Shown: positions 37,086 to 42,417 of the stretch, piece after piece
How positions within the stretch are numbered: position 1 is the first letter of the stretch
Layout of the letters: each line of letters opens with the position of its first letter
Source: Candidatus Berkelbacteria bacterium
Lineage (GTDB): Bacteria > Patescibacteriota > UBA1384 > JACPKC01
Direction of reading: 5' to 3'
Assembly: GCA_020429585.1 (NCBI GenBank)
Contig: JAGQLE010000020.1
Span: 1-57,078 of the forward strand
DNA: 57,078 nucleotides
Position numbers and translations under genes: made by a program
Notes under the pieces: generated by a model
What the model was told of the DNA's origin: nothing
Databases searched by the model: none
Seen by the model: the letters and a program-made list of their open reading frames with translations, nothing else

Positions 37086-37320
37086 ATTTTTCCTTTCGTT
37101 AACTGATCAATAACCTATTTTACGTAAAAATATTCTTTAAAACCAGTAAGATGTGAGCATTGGAACGAGACTAGAAGAAAATCTAATAAGACGAACGGTC
37201 AAATACGAGCCGAATCTGTTCGAAGATCTTAAATACAAAACCGAACAAAATGATTTATTTTAAGATCAAGTTATGCGGCGAGAGTGAGTTGAATATTAGA
37301 TTTCACTAACTAGCAGCTCA

Positions 37321-37352
37321 CGATTTTTGCAGCCGTTTTTCTAAAAAATGGC
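37321..37352. repeat. 32-nt repeat copy A (downstream of prfB, upstream of ybaB)
   Basis: CGATTTTTGCAGCCGTTTTTCTAAAAAATGGC. It differs at one position from copy B at 38578..38609, and weaker similarity extends into both flanks. Confidence 0.85.
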
Positions 37353-37399
37353 CTATTAATAAATACAAAAATTTCTTGACAGGCTCGAAATGGTAAACC

Positions 37400-38389
37400 T
37401 TAGCTATTTACTTCCTTTAACTTCCACTCCAAATACGCCTCAATAAATGGTTGCAACTTCCCGTTTAAAACCGCTTCAGCATCCGATTCCTCATGCCCGG
37501 TTCGGTTATCCTTAACTAGTTTATAGGGCTGCAGTACATAAGAGCGGATCTGACTCCCCCACTCTACCTTGCGGTGATCACCTTTTAGTTCCGAAATCTT
37601 ATCTACTCGAGCCTGCTCAGCCAAGGTCTGGAGCTTGGCCGCCAACACTTTCATGGCTACTTCTTTGTTCTGAGCCTGGGACCGTTCGTTCTGAACAGCG
37701 ACTACTATCCCTGTCGGTAAGTGAGTAAGACGAACAGCAGTTTCGACTTTGTTAACGTTTTGACCACCAGCACCGCCTGCCCGGTACAAATCAACCTTCA
37801 AATCCTTCTCGTCGATCTCCACTTCACCAAGATCATCAAACTCAGGAACTACTTCAATCAAAGCAAACGAAGTATGACGGGCTTTATCAGCATCAAAAGG
37901 CGAAATCCGCACCAAGCGATGCACTCCCGACTCACTACTCAAGTATCCATAAGCAAAATCACCTTCAATTTTAATAGTCGCTGATTTGATTCCTGCCTCT
38001 TCGCCTTTCGATTCGTCCATTAGGCTGACTTTAAAGCCTTGATCTTCTGCCCACTTCTCAACCATCCGCAAAAGCATCTCGGCCCAATCCTGAGCTTCAG
38101 TACCGCCGGCACCCGCATGAAAAGAAACAATGGCGTTTTTACCATCGTATTCACCCGAAAGTACGGCCTTTAGCTCAAGCTTACGCAGCTCCTCGGTAGT
38201 TTCGGCGTTTTCCCAATCTTCAATAATCTTTTTATGAGTCGACAGCTGTTGGGCTTTTTTAGTTGCCTCATCACGATTACTCCAAAACTCCGGCTGAGCC
38301 ATCTCGTATTCAATCGCCTTGACCGCTTGCTCGTGCTCCTCGATTTTTAGAAGCTCGTAGAGCTTTAATTTTTGTTCGTCTAAATCCAT
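37400..38389 (-). CDS. prfB: peptide chain release factor 2
   Basis: RISPFD (SPF) and GGQ motifs. I chose the ATG at 38389 (GGGAG 4 nt upstream), which aligns with the post-frameshift DLE/DYD position of known RF2. The alternative in-frame starts at 38425 and 38464 cannot be excluded. Confidence 0.85.
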
Positions 38390-38577
38390 ATTACTCCCAG
38401 GTAAGTATATCTGGAGTTGCCTCATTACCCAAGTAGACCTGTCAGCCTTGAGGCTTACTATCACTACTTACAAATTAAATCTGAATTATCAATTAACTTT
38501 TTTACATGTTTGACCGTAGGAAGTTTGTAAAAAAGAAGACTTTAATTTGAAAGTTGAGGAGTAAACGTAACGGCTGA

Positions 38578-38609
38578 CGATTTTTGCGGCCGTTTTTCTA
38601 AAAAATGGC
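38578..38609. repeat. 32-nt repeat copy B (upstream of prfB)
   Basis: CGATTTTTGCGGCCGTTTTTCTAAAAAATGGC. It contains the inverted repeat GCCGTTTTT/AAAAATGGC. Confidence 0.85.
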
Positions 38610-38631
38610 ACAAACAAACATCTACAAATAC

Positions 38632-38657
38632 AAAAAGACACCTTTCGGTGTCTTTTT
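38632..38657 (-). terminator. Rho-independent terminator (bidirectional in form)
   Basis: AAAAAGACACC tttc GGTGTCTTTTT. Confidence 0.8.
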
Positions 38658-38672
38658 GCAATCCCCCATTTT

Positions 38673-38713
38673 GTCATCCTTAACCGGAAGCGAAGCGCTC
38701 CGGATCAAGGATC
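38673..38713 (-). repeat. imperfect hairpin element abutting the stop of the LPXTG gene
   Basis: GTCATCCTT aa CCGGA agcgaagcgc TCCGG atc AAGGATC. The ends resemble the sequence inside cysS at 43339..43368. Confidence 0.5.
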
Positions 38714-39673
38714 TTAGCTAACAATTAGATCAGCCAAGGTAGTAGTTGCCTGCTTCTTGCGAAGCAAGTAACGGCCAGTACCACCAGCCAAGGTAGCTAA
38801 AGAAGCTAATAGAGCGATGGTATCAGCACCGGTCTTAGGAAGCTCCTTAGGTAAATCCTTATTGGAGGTTTCTACTTGAGCAATAACCTTTGAACTCTTA
38901 GACACATTTTGAGTCTGAGTTACAGTTTCGTTATTACCACCATTATTCTGGTTAACAGTAGCGGTTTGATTACCACTAGCAGTACAACTGCCAGAAGCAT
39001 CGCCGTCACCAGTGTTTACAACTGTATTAGTACAGTCGACATTCTGTGACTGGGAAATACTTGAGTTATTATTCTCGTTATTTCCGTTACCGTTACCGCC
39101 AGAAAGGTTAGACTGGTTAACAGTCGCTTCCTGATTACCAGCAGCAGCACAACTACCAGCCGCATCGCCTGAGCCAGTGTTTACAACTGTATTAGTACAG
39201 TCGACATTCTGACTCTGAGAAAGGCTTGAGTTGTTGTTTTGGTTAACGTTTTCTCCACCATTACTGGTAGAAGTGTTAGTACTAGTGTTACTAGTACCGT
39301 TATTAACCTGAGTATTGTTTGCCTGATTTGTTTCAGATCCCTGTTCGCCAGTTGAGGTACTAGTTCCGGTAGCATTACCTTCGCCAGTATTAACAACTAC
39401 GTTAGTAGCGTTAACATTTTGGGCCTGAGAAGTAGCAGCATTGTTGTTCTGATTAGTGTTGCTTGACGTACTTTCGTACGAATTAACGTTGGAGTTGGTA
39501 TTGGTATTCTCGACGGTATTAGAATTAGAGTTAGAAACATAATTTGAGTTAGTGTTACTGACTCCGTTCATGTAATCCATGCCGTAATCATTCCAATCCC
39601 AAGCGTAAGCAACGCTTGATGATCCAGCTGTTACCATCAAGGCAGTCACAAGCATAGTTGCGAATTTTTGCAT
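38714..39673 (-). CDS. LPXTG-anchored, Asn/Ser/Thr-rich repetitive surface protein
   Basis: Signal peptide MQKFATMLVTALMVTAGSSSVAYA. Three repeats of about 42 aa. C-terminal LPKTG plus the hydrophobic stretch ADTIALLASLATLAGGTG plus RYLLRKKQ. Confidence 0.75.
   Translation of the reverse strand: MQKFATMLVTALMVTAGSSSVAYAWDWNDYGMDYMNGVSNTNSNYVSNSNSNTVENTNTNSNVNSYESTSSNTNQNNNAATSQAQNVNATNVVVNTGEGNATGTSTSTGEQGSETNQANNTQVNNGTSNTSTNTSTSNGGENVNQNNNSSLSQSQNVDCTNTVVNTGSGDAAGSCAAAGNQEATVNQSNLSGGNGNGNNENNNSSISQSQNVDCTNTVVNTGDGDASGSCTASGNQTATVNQNNGGNNETVTQTQNVSKSSKVIAQVETSNKDLPKELPKTGADTIALLASLATLAGGTGRYLLRKKQATTTLADLIVS
38948..39448 (-). repeat. three tandem coding repeats (about 42 aa each), copies 2 and 3 near-identical at DNA level
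   Basis: NNN(A/S)(A/S).SQ(A/S)QNV..TN.VVNTG.G.A.G....G.Q....NQ. Copies 2 and 3 each carry two Cys (QNVDCTN...GSC). Confidence 0.8.
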
Positions 39674-39790
39674 AAGATATCACCCACTTTCTTAGGTTGC
39701 ATTTTTCGCTAGTATCGACTCCGCCCCACTGGCGGATTAGCGACCTCTCCATAAACTTTTACTTTCCCAAAGCCAATTTTTTAGCTTCAG

Positions 39791-39829
39791 GAAGAAAAAG
39801 TGGAGGTTGCGTCCGTAGACGCAACCTCC
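39791..39829 (-). terminator. Rho-independent terminator after the 302-aa secreted-protein gene
   Basis: Perfect 12-bp stem GGAGGTTGCGTC/GACGCAACCTCC with a tetraloop, followed on the minus strand by ACTTTTTCTTC. Confidence 0.8.
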
Positions 39830-39886
39830 TGGCGGATGACCCCTCAGTCAACCTTGCGGCCCAGAGCCGAAGCTCCGGACCTAATT

Positions 39887-40795
39887 TTATATACCGTTGT
39901 TTTGGTCGACCCCGGCGCCTTGTTGGCCAGTGCCGGTTGCCGAACCATCAACGTTGCCACTACCGGTGTTAATCAGAACGTTAACCGGAGTCACGTTCTG
40001 AGCCTGAGAGGTGGCGTTGTTGTTGTTTTGGTTGTTGTTAAAATTGGCGTTGTTATTGGTGTTCTCATTGACATTCGAAACGGTGTTCGAATTGTCCAAT
40101 GAGATCTTATTGCCGTTTTTAACAGCGGTAACTTGTCGGACGTTTACGACCGGCGGTTTTTGATTTTGATGGAAACCGATCTGGAAACTTGAAAAGTTTC
40201 CACCGATATTCCGTACTCCTCCCCCAGTCGACAAAACGCTAACTGGCGGCGCTTCCGCCCGCTGAAAAGTCGGTGGCGGCGGTTGGTAAGTTGGTGGCGG
40301 CGGTTGGTAAGTTGGTGGCGGCGTTTTTAGCCAGGTTACCTTGAGCCGCGACAGATTGCCGCAGCGCTTAGGCAAAACCCAGGTTATCACCTTGGTCGCA
40401 TTGCCCTCAGTTACCTGAACCTCAAATGCCCAAGCCTCCTGCGTCGAACCGGTTGCCAACTGAGGCGTGTACAAGGTTCTAACTTGAGAACCGTCGTACC
40501 ACCCCATCGTCTGCAAAACGATTCCATGCGGTAAACCACCTGGAACATCCTGAACAGCCCCGGACTGCAAAATTTGCAACACCGCCTGGGCAACGTCGTC
40601 ACGATGACCGGCCTGCTTAACGGCAGCCAGAATCAAATCTGGCCTGCTATTTGCAGCCCTCTGCAAGTTTTCTACCGACCAGACCGGCCCCAAAAGCGGG
40701 GCAACGCCGATCGTTCTTACAATTTGCCCCTGTGCGGCCAAAACCGGCCAAGGCAAACTAAAGAGAAACACTAATATGAGAGCGATTCGTCTCAT
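39887..40795 (-). CDS. secreted protein with Pro-rich linker and C-terminal Asn-rich repeat module
   Basis: Signal peptide MRRIALILVFLFSLPWPVLAA. PPPTYQPPPPTYQPPPPTFQ linker. The C-terminal NNNNATSQAQNVTPVNVLINTGSGN is homologous to the repeats of the LPXTG protein. Confidence 0.6.
   Translation of the reverse strand: MRRIALILVFLFSLPWPVLAAQGQIVRTIGVAPLLGPVWSVENLQRAANSRPDLILAAVKQAGHRDDVAQAVLQILQSGAVQDVPGGLPHGIVLQTMGWYDGSQVRTLYTPQLATGSTQEAWAFEVQVTEGNATKVITWVLPKRCGNLSRLKVTWLKTPPPTYQPPPPTYQPPPPTFQRAEAPPVSVLSTGGGVRNIGGNFSSFQIGFHQNQKPPVVNVRQVTAVKNGNKISLDNSNTVSNVNENTNNNANFNNNQNNNNATSQAQNVTPVNVLINTGSGNVDGSATGTGQQGAGVDQNNGI
40272..40323 (-). repeat. 21-bp perfect tandem repeat, about 2.5 copies, coding
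   Basis: GGTGGCGGCGGTTGGTAAGTT x2, then GGTGGCGGCG. It encodes the (P)PPPTYQ repeats. Confidence 0.9.
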
Positions 40796-41853
40796 TTCCC
40801 ACCTCTTCCTACCTGAATAAGCTTAAACCTCACGGCACCATCAGGTACCAAGGTCTTACTGTAGCCTTGGTTGTAGTTGTCCGGGGCAAACTGCCATTGT
40901 TGGTCGGCTTGCTCAACAAGGATCCTTACCTCCCCCGAGGGGATATTGTCAAATGCTGCCAAATCAGTTCCGGATGAAGACATCCTCGAAACGACCTGGC
41001 CGTTGACTTCAACGATAACATCAGGATTGCCACCCATATAGGGGGCTCCATTGGCTTTATTGAAGTTAACGCATACCCGACCGGATCCGGTCTGAGCTTC
41101 TGGCCGTTGGTAACTGCAATCACTGGCCTCAGCTTGCTGGCTCGGCGGATCGTTTACTTTTAAGATCCGAACCGGCGGCGCTTCGCCCGTGGCTGACTTG
41201 ACGATAAAGTGACCATCACTAGTCTCCATATTCGTCATGTACTTGTACAGTTCCAGATGCTCAGCCGTGTAACCCTTGTTAGGGTTAACCAAGTTGAGCA
41301 CAAAGCCATCTTCGGCATCGATTTCCCGCTTTCGACGAAAACGAAAGATCAAAACCTGAGTCGTGGCTTCGCCTCCCATATGTTTAAGCTGATAATCGAT
41401 AAAATGACGGCCAGCGGGCAAACTTGAGAGGTCGAGTAAGTAGCCACCGAGATCCTCCCGGCGGTCCACCATACCCAAACCGTCAGCGGTTTGGACAGTG
41501 ATGTTCTCGTGGGTGATCTCGTCTGCATTAATCGCAAAAAACGAAACCACCACCCAGCATTTGCCGTTGGGATTACTAGGTGAATAACGGGGCAACGTGA
41601 TCTCTGCCAGGTTAGAAGCCTGGTAAAAATCCGGTCCGCCGTCTTTAGCCCAGCGGTCTTCTCTGGTTGGAGCGTGACCATCAGGAGTGTAGTAAAACTC
41701 CACATTGTGGTTACCACTCGTTCCAGCCGGCTTGACAGTGTCGTAGGTAGACACGCTGCCTGCGACGTTGGCCAAACTTTGGGCCGATACTGGCGTTGAT
41801 GCGATCATGACCGCAAACATCACCAGTGCGGCTACATTTAGGTTTCGTTTCAT
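40792..41853 (-). CDS. secreted hypothetical protein (353 aa)
   Basis: Signal peptide MKRNLNVAALVMFAVMIASTPVSA. Strong GGAGGAGG RBS. ATGA overlap with the downstream gene. Confidence 0.6.
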   Translation of the reverse strand: MKRNLNVAALVMFAVMIASTPVSAQSLANVAGSVSTYDTVKPAGTSGNHNVEFYYTPDGHAPTREDRWAKDGGPDFYQASNLAEITLPRYSPSNPNGKCWVVVSFFAINADEITHENITVQTADGLGMVDRREDLGGYLLDLSSLPAGRHFIDYQLKHMGGEATTQVLIFRFRRKREIDAEDGFVLNLVNPNKGYTAEHLELYKYMTNMETSDGHFIVKSATGEAPPVRILKVNDPPSQQAEASDCSYQRPEAQTGSGRVCVNFNKANGAPYMGGNPDVIVEVNGQVVSRMSSSGTDLAAFDNIPSGEVRILVEQADQQWQFAPDNYNQGYSKTLVPDGAVRFKLIQVGRGGK

Positions 41854-41921
41854 TGAAACCTCCTCCTTTTCTTTGCGGTTTGACCGCGAGTTTTTCGAAA
41901 GAAGAACCTACTCCGAACATC

Positions 41922-41946
41922 AAAAAAGCGATCCGGAACAGATCGC
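41922..41946 (-). terminator. intrinsic terminator inside the leader region
   Basis: GCGATC tgttccg GATCGC followed by T6 on the minus strand, about 70 nt upstream of the 41853 start codon. The adjacent CGCAA/TTGCG hairpin (41944..41956) shares 3 nt with its stem. Confidence 0.6.
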
Positions 41947-42246
41947 AAATATTGCGTTTGGAAAAAAGCCTTCCCTCACATTAGTTTTTTAGGTTCTGCC
42001 CCTTGAGTACATATAGTTTATGTTCTCTCCGGGCCTGCTCCTTTGGCAGAGAGATAATTACTCTCTCTGTTCTGACCAAGCAAGGTTAGCAAGCTAACCC
42101 AGACCCAGGGGCAGCAGGGAAGGAGGGGCACGTAGGCAAGCAAGCTCACCTACACTCTCCACTGCTCTTAGTCAGAACAGAACGAATAATTTCTTAAAAA
42201 CACCCAGATCCCTCCAGATGCTTTTTATTATCTTACTTTAAAAAGA
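41922..42246 (-). ncRNA. candidate structured leader RNA or sRNA (unclassified)
   Basis: It is bounded by promoters (42227..42281) and a terminator (41922..41946). An 11-bp closing helix (42066..42076 with 42171..42181) encloses two hairpins with GCUUGC-containing loops. A competing 8-bp hairpin lies at 42047..42069. Confidence 0.35.
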
Positions 42247-42281
42247 CTTGTCAGTCTAGCACTTTTTTATCTTGTCGTCAA
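42227..42281 (-). promoter_or_regulatory. two tandem sigma70-like promoters
   Basis: Minus strand: TTGACG (42281..42276) - 17 nt - TAGACT (42258..42253), and CTGACA (42254..42249) - 16 nt - GATAAT (42232..42227). Confidence 0.5.
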
Positions 42282-42329: not shown

Positions 42330-42417
42330 GTCATCTCGACTAAGTGACGGAGGAACGCATCGAGAGATCCCTACGCAACAGATCTCTCGATTACGCTATC
42401 GCTCCACTCGAGATGAC
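42330..42417. repeat. 88-nt nested palindromic element
   Basis: Outer 10-bp stem GTCATCTCGA/TCGAGATGAC and inner 11-bp stem ATCGAGAGATC/GATCTCTCGAT (42359..42391). Confidence 0.7.

Follow-up and report, generated by a model that had tools for sequence, protein, structure and literature searches.

A predicted single-copy structured RNA family of Berkelbacteria, encoded between cysS and hypervariable surface-protein genes

We analysed a stretch of 57,078 nt from a Candidatus Berkelbacteria bacterium (contig JAGQLE010000020.1 of assembly GCA_020429585.1; hereafter the window), whose genome of 790 kb is 99% complete. On the minus strand of the window, cysS is followed by a gap that ends at the gene of a 353-aa signal-peptide protein, which is the first gene of a GC-rich two-gene operon. 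In this gap we observed, in the order of reading, a sigma70-type promoter, a terminator-shaped hairpin, a conserved structured RNA and an intrinsic terminator (coordinates are given in Table 1). The RNA between the promoter and the terminator is the subject of this study. The two genes behind it have a GC content of 0.50–0.56 compared to 0.41–0.46 in the flanks (39650-41900).

Merely short overlapping open reading frames (ORFs) of 32–93 aa were found in the gap. Since the relatives show here indels that are not multiples of three, along with compensatory base changes, we consider the region non-coding. Two candidate leader peptides were ruled out: a 43-aa ORF (42149-42018) is not conserved as a coding sequence, and an 11-codon ORF with a GUG start, located behind the 5' hairpin, has no counterpart in relatives. 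All gene calls in relatives are ORF scans made for this analysis. An earlier note on this DNA had described a gap with no credible ORF, with two sigma70-like promoters, a multi-helix RNA having its own promoter, a terminator (GCGATC..GATCGC followed by T6) and a ribosome-binding site (RBS) ahead of the ATG. All of these elements were recovered: the promoters and the terminator by scans, the RBS at its place in the sequence, and the RNA by the agreement of promoter scan, folding z-score and covariation.

The closing helix of the RNA, P1, pairs UCUGUUCUGAC (42181-42171) with GUCAGAACAGA (42076-42066). Only 11 bp of this helix had been noted earlier; it actually extends over 16 contiguous pairs and, after one interruption, over 8 further pairs. 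For 54 loci, the median length of P1 was 23 bp, with a range from 12 to 30, as determined from an anchored pair count with one interruption allowed. The top of P1 is conserved as GGCUGGGA / UCCUGGCU and carries an invariant C-G pair beside an invariant U.G pair. What is common to every member is this closing duplex of about 23 bp together with its conserved top.

Farther inside, a purine-rich 5' strand is paired irregularly with a pyrimidine-rich 3' strand, GGAGAG standing against CCCUCCUUCCC. Both motifs were invariant in all 29 sequences of the alignment designated A5, which comprises the families with the strongest model matches, and in more distant families GGAGAG showed compensatory variation. 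In the family of the window the longer 3' segment, UGCCCCUCCUUCCC, was invariant in 8/8 sequences. This segment contains CCUCCUU, which we take to be the canonical bacterial anti-Shine-Dalgarno sequence. The motif is present once in the 790-kb genome; the 16S 3' end, with which it could be compared, was not found in the assembly.

The outer parts of the fold are more variable. The apical hairpin P3 differs in sequence and length between genomes, all its 4+4 modelled pairs have compensatory changes, and its loop is CUUG, UUA or A/U-rich across members. The side hairpin P4 produces a three-way junction in the window's family and in a few others, and is absent from the versions of 100–110 nt. Both hairpins and the C-rich strand between them had been recognised in the earlier note and are present as described there. 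With respect to size, the RNA is a plain hairpin of 97–113 nt in other families and reaches 130–154 nt in distant ones. In one family (f9), a version of about 138 nt has GGAUGA in place of GGAGAG and a more elaborate apical domain.

The predicted fold is very stable. The minimum free energy of the segment 41920-42200 had a z-score of -5.0 and that of 41855-42230 a z-score of -5.8, with none of the 100–200 shuffled sequences being as stable. The core in the window scored 121 bits with the first of our two covariance models (R1) and 79.6 bits with the second one (R2).

The earlier note had proposed a covariation check on homologous intergenic regions, and this check gave a strong signal, with the helices of the core conserved. 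A DNA search of the relatives produced matches confined to 42189-42061, at 72–79% identity, in 7 of 9 same-family genomes. From eight same-family sequences, RNAalifold predicted 46 pairs, 18 of them with compensatory double changes. In A5, 94.7% of the cells were standard pairs compared to 34–54% when the partners were slid by 1–3 columns, and 33 of the 46 pairs changed on both sides (15 of 19 in the closing helix). In a second, more distant set the corresponding values were 90.1% and 33–51%, and compensatory changes were seen in the inner helix as well. At the level of compared sequences, the covariation confirms that the gap encodes a genuine folded RNA. The conserved U.G and G.U pairs establish, furthermore, that the transcribed strand is the minus strand, the same as for cysS.

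The RNA could not be assigned to a described family, as the earlier note had also concluded. A search with Rfam 15 gave no match at the gathering score in the whole window. At E ≤ 10 there was no credible match, only weak off-target ones to mir-942 and to antisense_SR1 (24.9 bits against a threshold of 45, at a position upstream of the RNA). At 31 homologous loci no Rfam model matched at the RNA even at E ≤ 0.1. In the literature we found nothing relevant on a described RNA motif of Berkelbacteria or of the Candidate Phyla Radiation (CPR).

Model R1 was built from eight same-family sequences and model R2 from 29 matches; the E-values of these models are rough. R1 had exactly one match per genome in 45 of the 151 genomes of the class. 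R2 had a match in 84 of the 151, a single one in all but two of them. Since one iteration raised the census from 45 to 84, the R2-negative genomes may hold more diverged versions. The second R2 match in genome G005 is an assembly overlap at the RNA. Genome G046 has a second, weaker match (35 bits; G046:C52:5585-5672, locus L160) upstream of a UvrD/PcrA-like helicase gene, which may be a second copy or a false positive.

Outside the class, R2 was run on 144 genomes belonging to other classes of the phylum and had no match. When 185,579 species genomes were scanned for an exact pattern, 75 matches came up, and the model confirmed 29 of them. The records with confirmed matches were titled Berkelbacteria, 'Patescibacteria group', Saccharibacteria/Saccharimonadales or 'bacterium', and none was titled as a non-CPR organism. 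Judged by these searches, the RNA is a member of a previously unclassified, Berkelbacteria-wide, single-copy structured RNA family.

Transcription from promoter 1 is predicted to start at about 42246, and the same-family relatives have TTGACA-17-TAGACT at the equivalent position. Site 2 lacked a counterpart in relatives; it may serve as an alternative start or match the consensus by chance. A promoter with at least 10 of the 12 consensus positions was present within 160 nt upstream of the RNA at 31 of 45 loci, compared to 1.6 expected from shuffles, and 25 of these 31 had TTGAC[AT] with an extended -10. There is strong support for transcription of the leader RNA from a near-consensus sigma70-type promoter directly after cysS.

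The RNA resides in a fixed order of elements: cysS, consensus promoter, RNA, gene of a signal-peptide protein. Among 55 loci, cysS was just upstream on the same strand in 39, and a signal-peptide or membrane-anchored protein was encoded 28–430 nt downstream, on the same strand, in about 46. The downstream signal-peptide proteins (290–540 aa, with a classical signal peptide) match no Pfam family and form at least 12 unrelated clusters; the RNA is far more conserved than they are. A strong promoter separates the RNA from the gene at only 1 of 45 loci (0.65 expected), so that the RNA normally forms the 5' leader of the operon. The gene order and the placement of promoters strongly support the view that in most genomes the predicted RNA is the first module of the 5' leader of a hypervariable GC-rich surface-protein operon.

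There are exceptions to this arrangement. Genomes G005 (loci L031 and L159; the family of the window) and G114 (L155; a different family) have no surface cassette in the slot, and the RNA precedes prfB. In G005 a terminator stands between the RNA and prfB; in G114 the distance from the RNA to prfB is 78 nt. The replacement of the cassette by prfB in these genomes, as well as the existence of at least 12 unrelated downstream clusters, argue that the function of the RNA is independent of the cassette. In the window itself, prfB follows the surface block.

Table 1. Features of the gap downstream of cysS and of the operon that follows it (positions in the window)
Feature	Position	Strand	Basis
Promoter 1: TTGACG (42281-42276), 17-nt spacer, TAGACT (42258-42253) with TG-extended -10	42253..42281	minus	promoter scan
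Promoter-like site 2: CTGACA-16-GATAAT (-10 at 42232-42227), overlaps promoter 1	42227..42254	minus	scan, 10/12 matches
5' hairpin AAAAAGCAUCUGGAGGGAUCUGGGUGUUUUU, GGAGGG at tip, then U-run; terminator-shaped, inside the predicted transcript	42196..42226	minus	folding
Conserved structured RNA core, 133 nt: P1, P2 with invariant irregular helix, apical P3, side P4	42057..42189	minus	covariance models, covariation
GGAGAG, 5' strand of the inner irregular helix	42155..42160	minus	alignment A5
Apical hairpin P3, GUAGGUGAGC-UUGC-UUGCCUAC, G(CUUG)C tetraloop	42132..42153	minus	fold, alignment
UGCCCCUCCUUCCC, 3' strand of the inner helix and unpaired UGCCC	42117..42130	minus	alignments
Side hairpin P4, GGGUUAGCUUGCUAACCU, G(CUUG)C tetraloop	42083..42100	minus	fold, alignment
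Purine tract AAGGGGCAG, complementary to the core's unpaired UGCCCCU	41995..42003	minus	alignment A7
Intrinsic terminator, GCGAUCUG-UUC-CGGAUCGC then U6, between leader RNA and surface gene 1	41922..41946	minus	scan
RBS GGAGGAGG (41866-41859) and ATG (41853) of the 353-aa signal-peptide protein	41851..41866	minus	sequence, ORF list
Operon-end terminator, strong, 12 bp, GGAGGUUGCGUC-UACG-GACGCAACCUCC	39829-39802	minus	terminator scan

We found no minus-strand promoter in 37200-42226, and only the two upstream of the RNA serve the unit 42281-39802. Since no promoter follows the terminator at 41946-41922, expression of the two-gene operon needs read-through of this terminator. Such a configuration, a terminator with no promoter after it, was observed in the window and in its close relatives L022 and L026. 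A strict scan detected a terminator between the RNA and the gene at 3 of 46 loci, all of them from the window's family; in addition, terminators were seen in f9 and in G005.

Two purine-rich elements outside the core have complements inside it. Downstream, the motif (G)AGGGGC recurs in six same-family relatives at the position of AAGGGGCAG, and a long-range pairing of this tract with the unpaired UGCCCCU of the core may form. Upstream, a GGAGG hairpin with a U-run was present between the promoter and the RNA at 13 of 46 loci from several families (L024, L032, L035, L040, L131, L134 and others, the window's own locus being one of the 13); the purine tract of this GGAGG(G) hairpin is complementary to the invariant CCCUCC of the RNA. 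Pairing of the C-rich strand with an RBS was set aside as uninformative, because any GGAGG site pairs with CCUCC.

As to function, the reading that we favour, while giving it only about an even chance, is that of a constitutively folded RNA module acting in cis as part of the leader. The RNA would then be a recognition module whose fold is constitutive, and not a metabolite switch, because the duplex of about 23 bp is hardly displaceable and no conserved alternative pairing to the terminator or the RBS was found. The duplex would present the C-G / U.G step and the invariant purine/pyrimidine irregular helix (GGAGAG against CCCUCCUUCCC), which look like a site for a protein or for RNA polymerase. 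A cellular factor would read the module and act in cis on its own transcript. One proposed action is that the elongating polymerase would be enabled to pass the intrinsic terminator that follows (41946-41922 in the window). The other is that RNase III would cut the long duplex, freeing a stable hairpin and resetting the 5' end of the mRNA, and that the cut would determine how stable the downstream message is and how well it is translated. The action of RNase III would also reconcile the picture of a leader with that of a small RNA (sRNA). In the genome of the window, part of the transcripts would stop at 41922, giving a leader RNA of about 320 nt, while the others would run on into the two GC-rich genes.

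Several properties of the genome bear on these two actions. Searches for Rho in this genome and 8 relatives gave no match, and only one NusG is encoded; antitermination would thus act on intrinsic terminators and would do so without a paralogue of the RfaH or LoaP type. Antitermination of the LoaP/RfaH type was rejected on account of the single NusG, and protection from Rho on account of the missing Rho. A leader processed by RNase III would be expected to have a duplex of about 20 bp or more, along with an RNase III gene in the genome; the duplex (the median for P1 is given above) and the gene (PF14622, 142 bits, contig 52) are both present.

A bolder version of the cis-acting reading is a host-encoded, RNA-only 'expression platform', in which the hairpin would by itself engage RNA polymerase or another core machine, and the transcript would become terminator-resistant or processing-competent irrespective of the gene that follows. 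We regard this version as unlikely. The same low probability applies to its corollary that the RNA is a fixed docking point behind which Berkelbacteria exchange surface-protein cassettes.

Several observations weigh against a cis-acting leader. In f9, the RNA runs directly into an intrinsic terminator at loci L145 and L148 and into a U-rich tract at L143 and L149; at L148, the terminator is followed by a separate promoter, TTGACA-17-TATAAA, before the surface gene. In G005, too, the terminator stands immediately behind the RNA. The terminators of f9 and G005 are no less compatible with a stand-alone RNA than with a leader. The terminator-like hairpin upstream of the RNA at 13 of 46 loci is not explained by the antitermination model, homology to a known antiterminator RNA was not found, and no partner protein for the RNA was identified. 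The transcript starts, ends, processing and read-through discussed above are themselves predictions made from sequence. For the reason that f9 and G005 terminate directly after the RNA, a stand-alone sRNA acting in trans remains a serious rival, one that we consider a real possibility though a rather doubtful one. The RNA would then be stable and expressed independently, would simply occupy a fixed slot between cysS and the surface operon, and would be part of a ribonucleoprotein or a regulator whose CCUCC strand or unpaired UGCCCC meets purine-rich RBSs; that it is transcribed together with the following gene would be incidental, as for Escherichia coli 6S RNA and ygfA. Such an RNA would be expected to look much as this one does: single-copy, class-wide, equipped with its own consensus promoter, conserved far above the downstream proteins, and retained in the two genomes with no surface cassette. 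The terminator located 110 nt after the RNA in the window points the same way, and this genome may produce a terminated sRNA of about 300 nt. On the other hand, in most families neither a terminator nor a promoter is present before the next start codon, which comes 28–120 nt on. Also, the CCUCC strand is poorly available for pairing in trans, because it is base-paired in a very stable, covarying hairpin, no Hfq-independent partner is known, and CsrA and Rsr are not encoded.

The earlier note had proposed, along with an sRNA, a riboswitch or protein-dependent attenuator. On this reading, the invariant internal loop would bind a small molecule such as cyclic di-AMP (c-di-AMP), or a protein, and termination at 41946-41922 or translation of the surface genes would be set thereby. 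We consider this improbable, more so than a stand-alone sRNA. Invariant internal-loop nucleotides flanked by covarying helices are typical of aptamers, and the invariant internal helix or loop with covarying P1, P2 and P3 would suit a ligand pocket; it would equally suit a protein-binding site. Some adhesin and pilus genes are known to be preceded by riboswitches for nucleotide messengers, the genome codes for a c-di-AMP cyclase, and a terminator follows the RNA both in the window's genome and in f9. However, the competing helices on which the proposal was built did not hold up as a conserved layout. The hairpin CAGAGAGA/UCUCUCUG is present, but its competition with the closing helix is limited to the outermost base, and it is unconserved beyond the closest relatives; the same lack of conservation was found for the hairpin CGCAA/UUGCG, which is present but weak. 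The closing helix of about 23 bp is far longer than the P1 of a switchable riboswitch and too stable for displacement, and the RNA has no conserved alternative pairing with the terminator or the RBS. A terminator between the RNA and the gene is absent from most loci and occurs in few lineages only. The downstream genes code for hypervariable secreted proteins and not for ligand-related enzymes or transporters. One copy per genome, placed before unrelated and fast-changing proteins (or before prfB in two genomes), makes no ligand-related regulon, and no riboswitch model matched. GGDEF cyclases are absent from the genome; sensing of c-di-GMP was ruled out on this ground.

A diverged universal RNA that the Rfam models missed, such as the RNA of the signal recognition particle (SRP/4.5S), 6S RNA, Y RNA, transfer-messenger RNA (tmRNA) or RNase P RNA, would also be a single-copy hairpin of about 100–150 nt with its own promoter, and the SRP RNA and 6S models find nothing in the genome. 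We hold this explanation to be very improbable. RNase P RNA and tmRNA were both located elsewhere in the genome and were thereby dismissed as candidates. For 6S RNA, RF00013 gave no match, the centre of our RNA is closed by the covarying P2 and inner helix, and the length is 97–154 nt. The 5' GGCUGG of the RNA resembles Y RNAs; Y RNA was nevertheless rejected because no TROVE protein (Ro; PF05731) is encoded. A sponge of the CsrB/RsmZ type was rejected as well: CsrA (PF02599) is not encoded, and the RNA has a single GGA-containing strand, which is base-paired.

SRP RNA was rejected on several grounds. The models RF00169 and RF01854 matched in none of the 151 class genomes, the apical loop of our RNA is variable and has no GNAR tetraloop, and Ffh/FtsY are absent. 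The domains PF02978 and PF00448 were not found in the 99%-complete genome, and the best E-value of a tblastn search with a genuine Ffh was 0.56. Of 61 class genomes, one gave a real match to the SRP54 domain; of 101 sampled genomes of the phylum, none did. The match in the sole positive, G057, sits on a short contig in a bin of 190 contigs and could be a contaminant. According to a published paper (PMC8080830), many CPR bacteria lack both SRP subunits.

Among known systems, the put RNA of phage HK022 and the eps-associated RNA (EAR) of the Bacillus subtilis eps operon come close to the cis-acting reading. They are folded RNAs of about 70–130 nt, promoter-proximal or inside a long cell-surface operon. 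They act on their own polymerase, so that downstream intrinsic terminators are passed regardless of the genes, and the RNA in the window also has a terminator with no following promoter. In contrast to put and EAR, the Berkelbacteria RNA is built as a single long duplex (about 23 bp) that encloses an irregular helix, and at most loci there is no terminator to overcome. There was also no sequence or model similarity to put and EAR in Rfam scans with a library that was unchecked for EAR or put models.

The leaders processed by RNase III (Staphylococcus aureus cspA, Escherichia coli rnc and pnp, phage T7 sites of the R1.1 type) have, like our RNA, a near-perfect two-turn duplex in the 5' untranslated region. 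RNase III cuts in such leaders set message stability or translation and release a hairpin. Unlike the RNA described here, these leaders form no class-wide sequence family and have no invariant internal helix; cleavage of our RNA is only predicted.

With the leaders of surface-protein genes (Lactobacillus slpA, the Clostridioides difficile slpA cassette locus, Borrelia vlsE) our RNA shares a fixed promoter, a long structured leader and a fixed slot, as well as surface proteins that differ wholesale between relatives. However, those leaders are conserved within a genus or species only and are generic 5' stabilisers, whereas this RNA has 11–14 invariant nucleotides and a covarying fold across many families. 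Its location, 20–110 nt from the predicted 5' end, is ill-suited to a simple 5'-end protector. The 6S RNA of E. coli (ssrS) is likewise single-copy, promoter-proximal and a long irregular hairpin, and ygfA can be co-transcribed with it. Still, 6S RNA has about 180 nt with a large open central bubble, compared to 100–150 nt, a closed centre and an apical stem of 7–13 bp in our RNA.

To our knowledge, almost nothing is known about gene regulation in Berkelbacteria and other CPR bacteria, which are uncultivated and have tiny genomes. Here, one RNA fold with 11–14 invariant nucleotides is kept class-wide before the most variable genes of the genome, those of exported surface proteins, which presumably mediate contact with a host or the environment. 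Given that a conserved RNA precedes the most variable exported-protein genes, whatever reads the RNA is likely a central control point of the cell surface. Covariation defines the family well, and Rfam does not contain it. Should the RNA turn out to be a module for antitermination or processing that needs no protein, a lineage without Rho, Hfq-type partners or SRP would have supplied an expression element that is compact and portable. The RNA-only version, if true, would give the phage put RNA its first class-wide counterpart encoded by cells.

Several further observations concern the neighbourhood of the RNA. Between cysS and the promoter of the window lies an 88-nt nested palindrome (42330-42417), a dispersed repeat with 12 more partial copies at 71–93% identity on nine other contigs of the genome. 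The palindrome shifts the RNA to a distance of about 350 nt from cysS, compared to about 70–150 nt in relatives. A mobile element or repeat was rejected as the identity of the RNA itself, since the RNA is single-copy and syntenic and only the separate palindrome is repeated.

In genomes G004 (L162, 3003-5975) and G006 (L163, 2918-5632), the RNA is followed within 13–30 nt by genes of homologous proteins of 900–1000 aa. These proteins have no signal peptide and no Pfam family; they are membrane-anchored, with a hydrophobic segment near residues 105–165. At loci L142, L147 and L151 (families f28 and f38), a second conserved leader hairpin, GUGCYACC...GGURGCAC, followed by UUUGAUAU/UUUAAAAA, is positioned between the RNA and the surface gene, 40–60 nt before the RBS. 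In the window, a third gene, of the LPXTG type, sits beyond the operon-end terminator.

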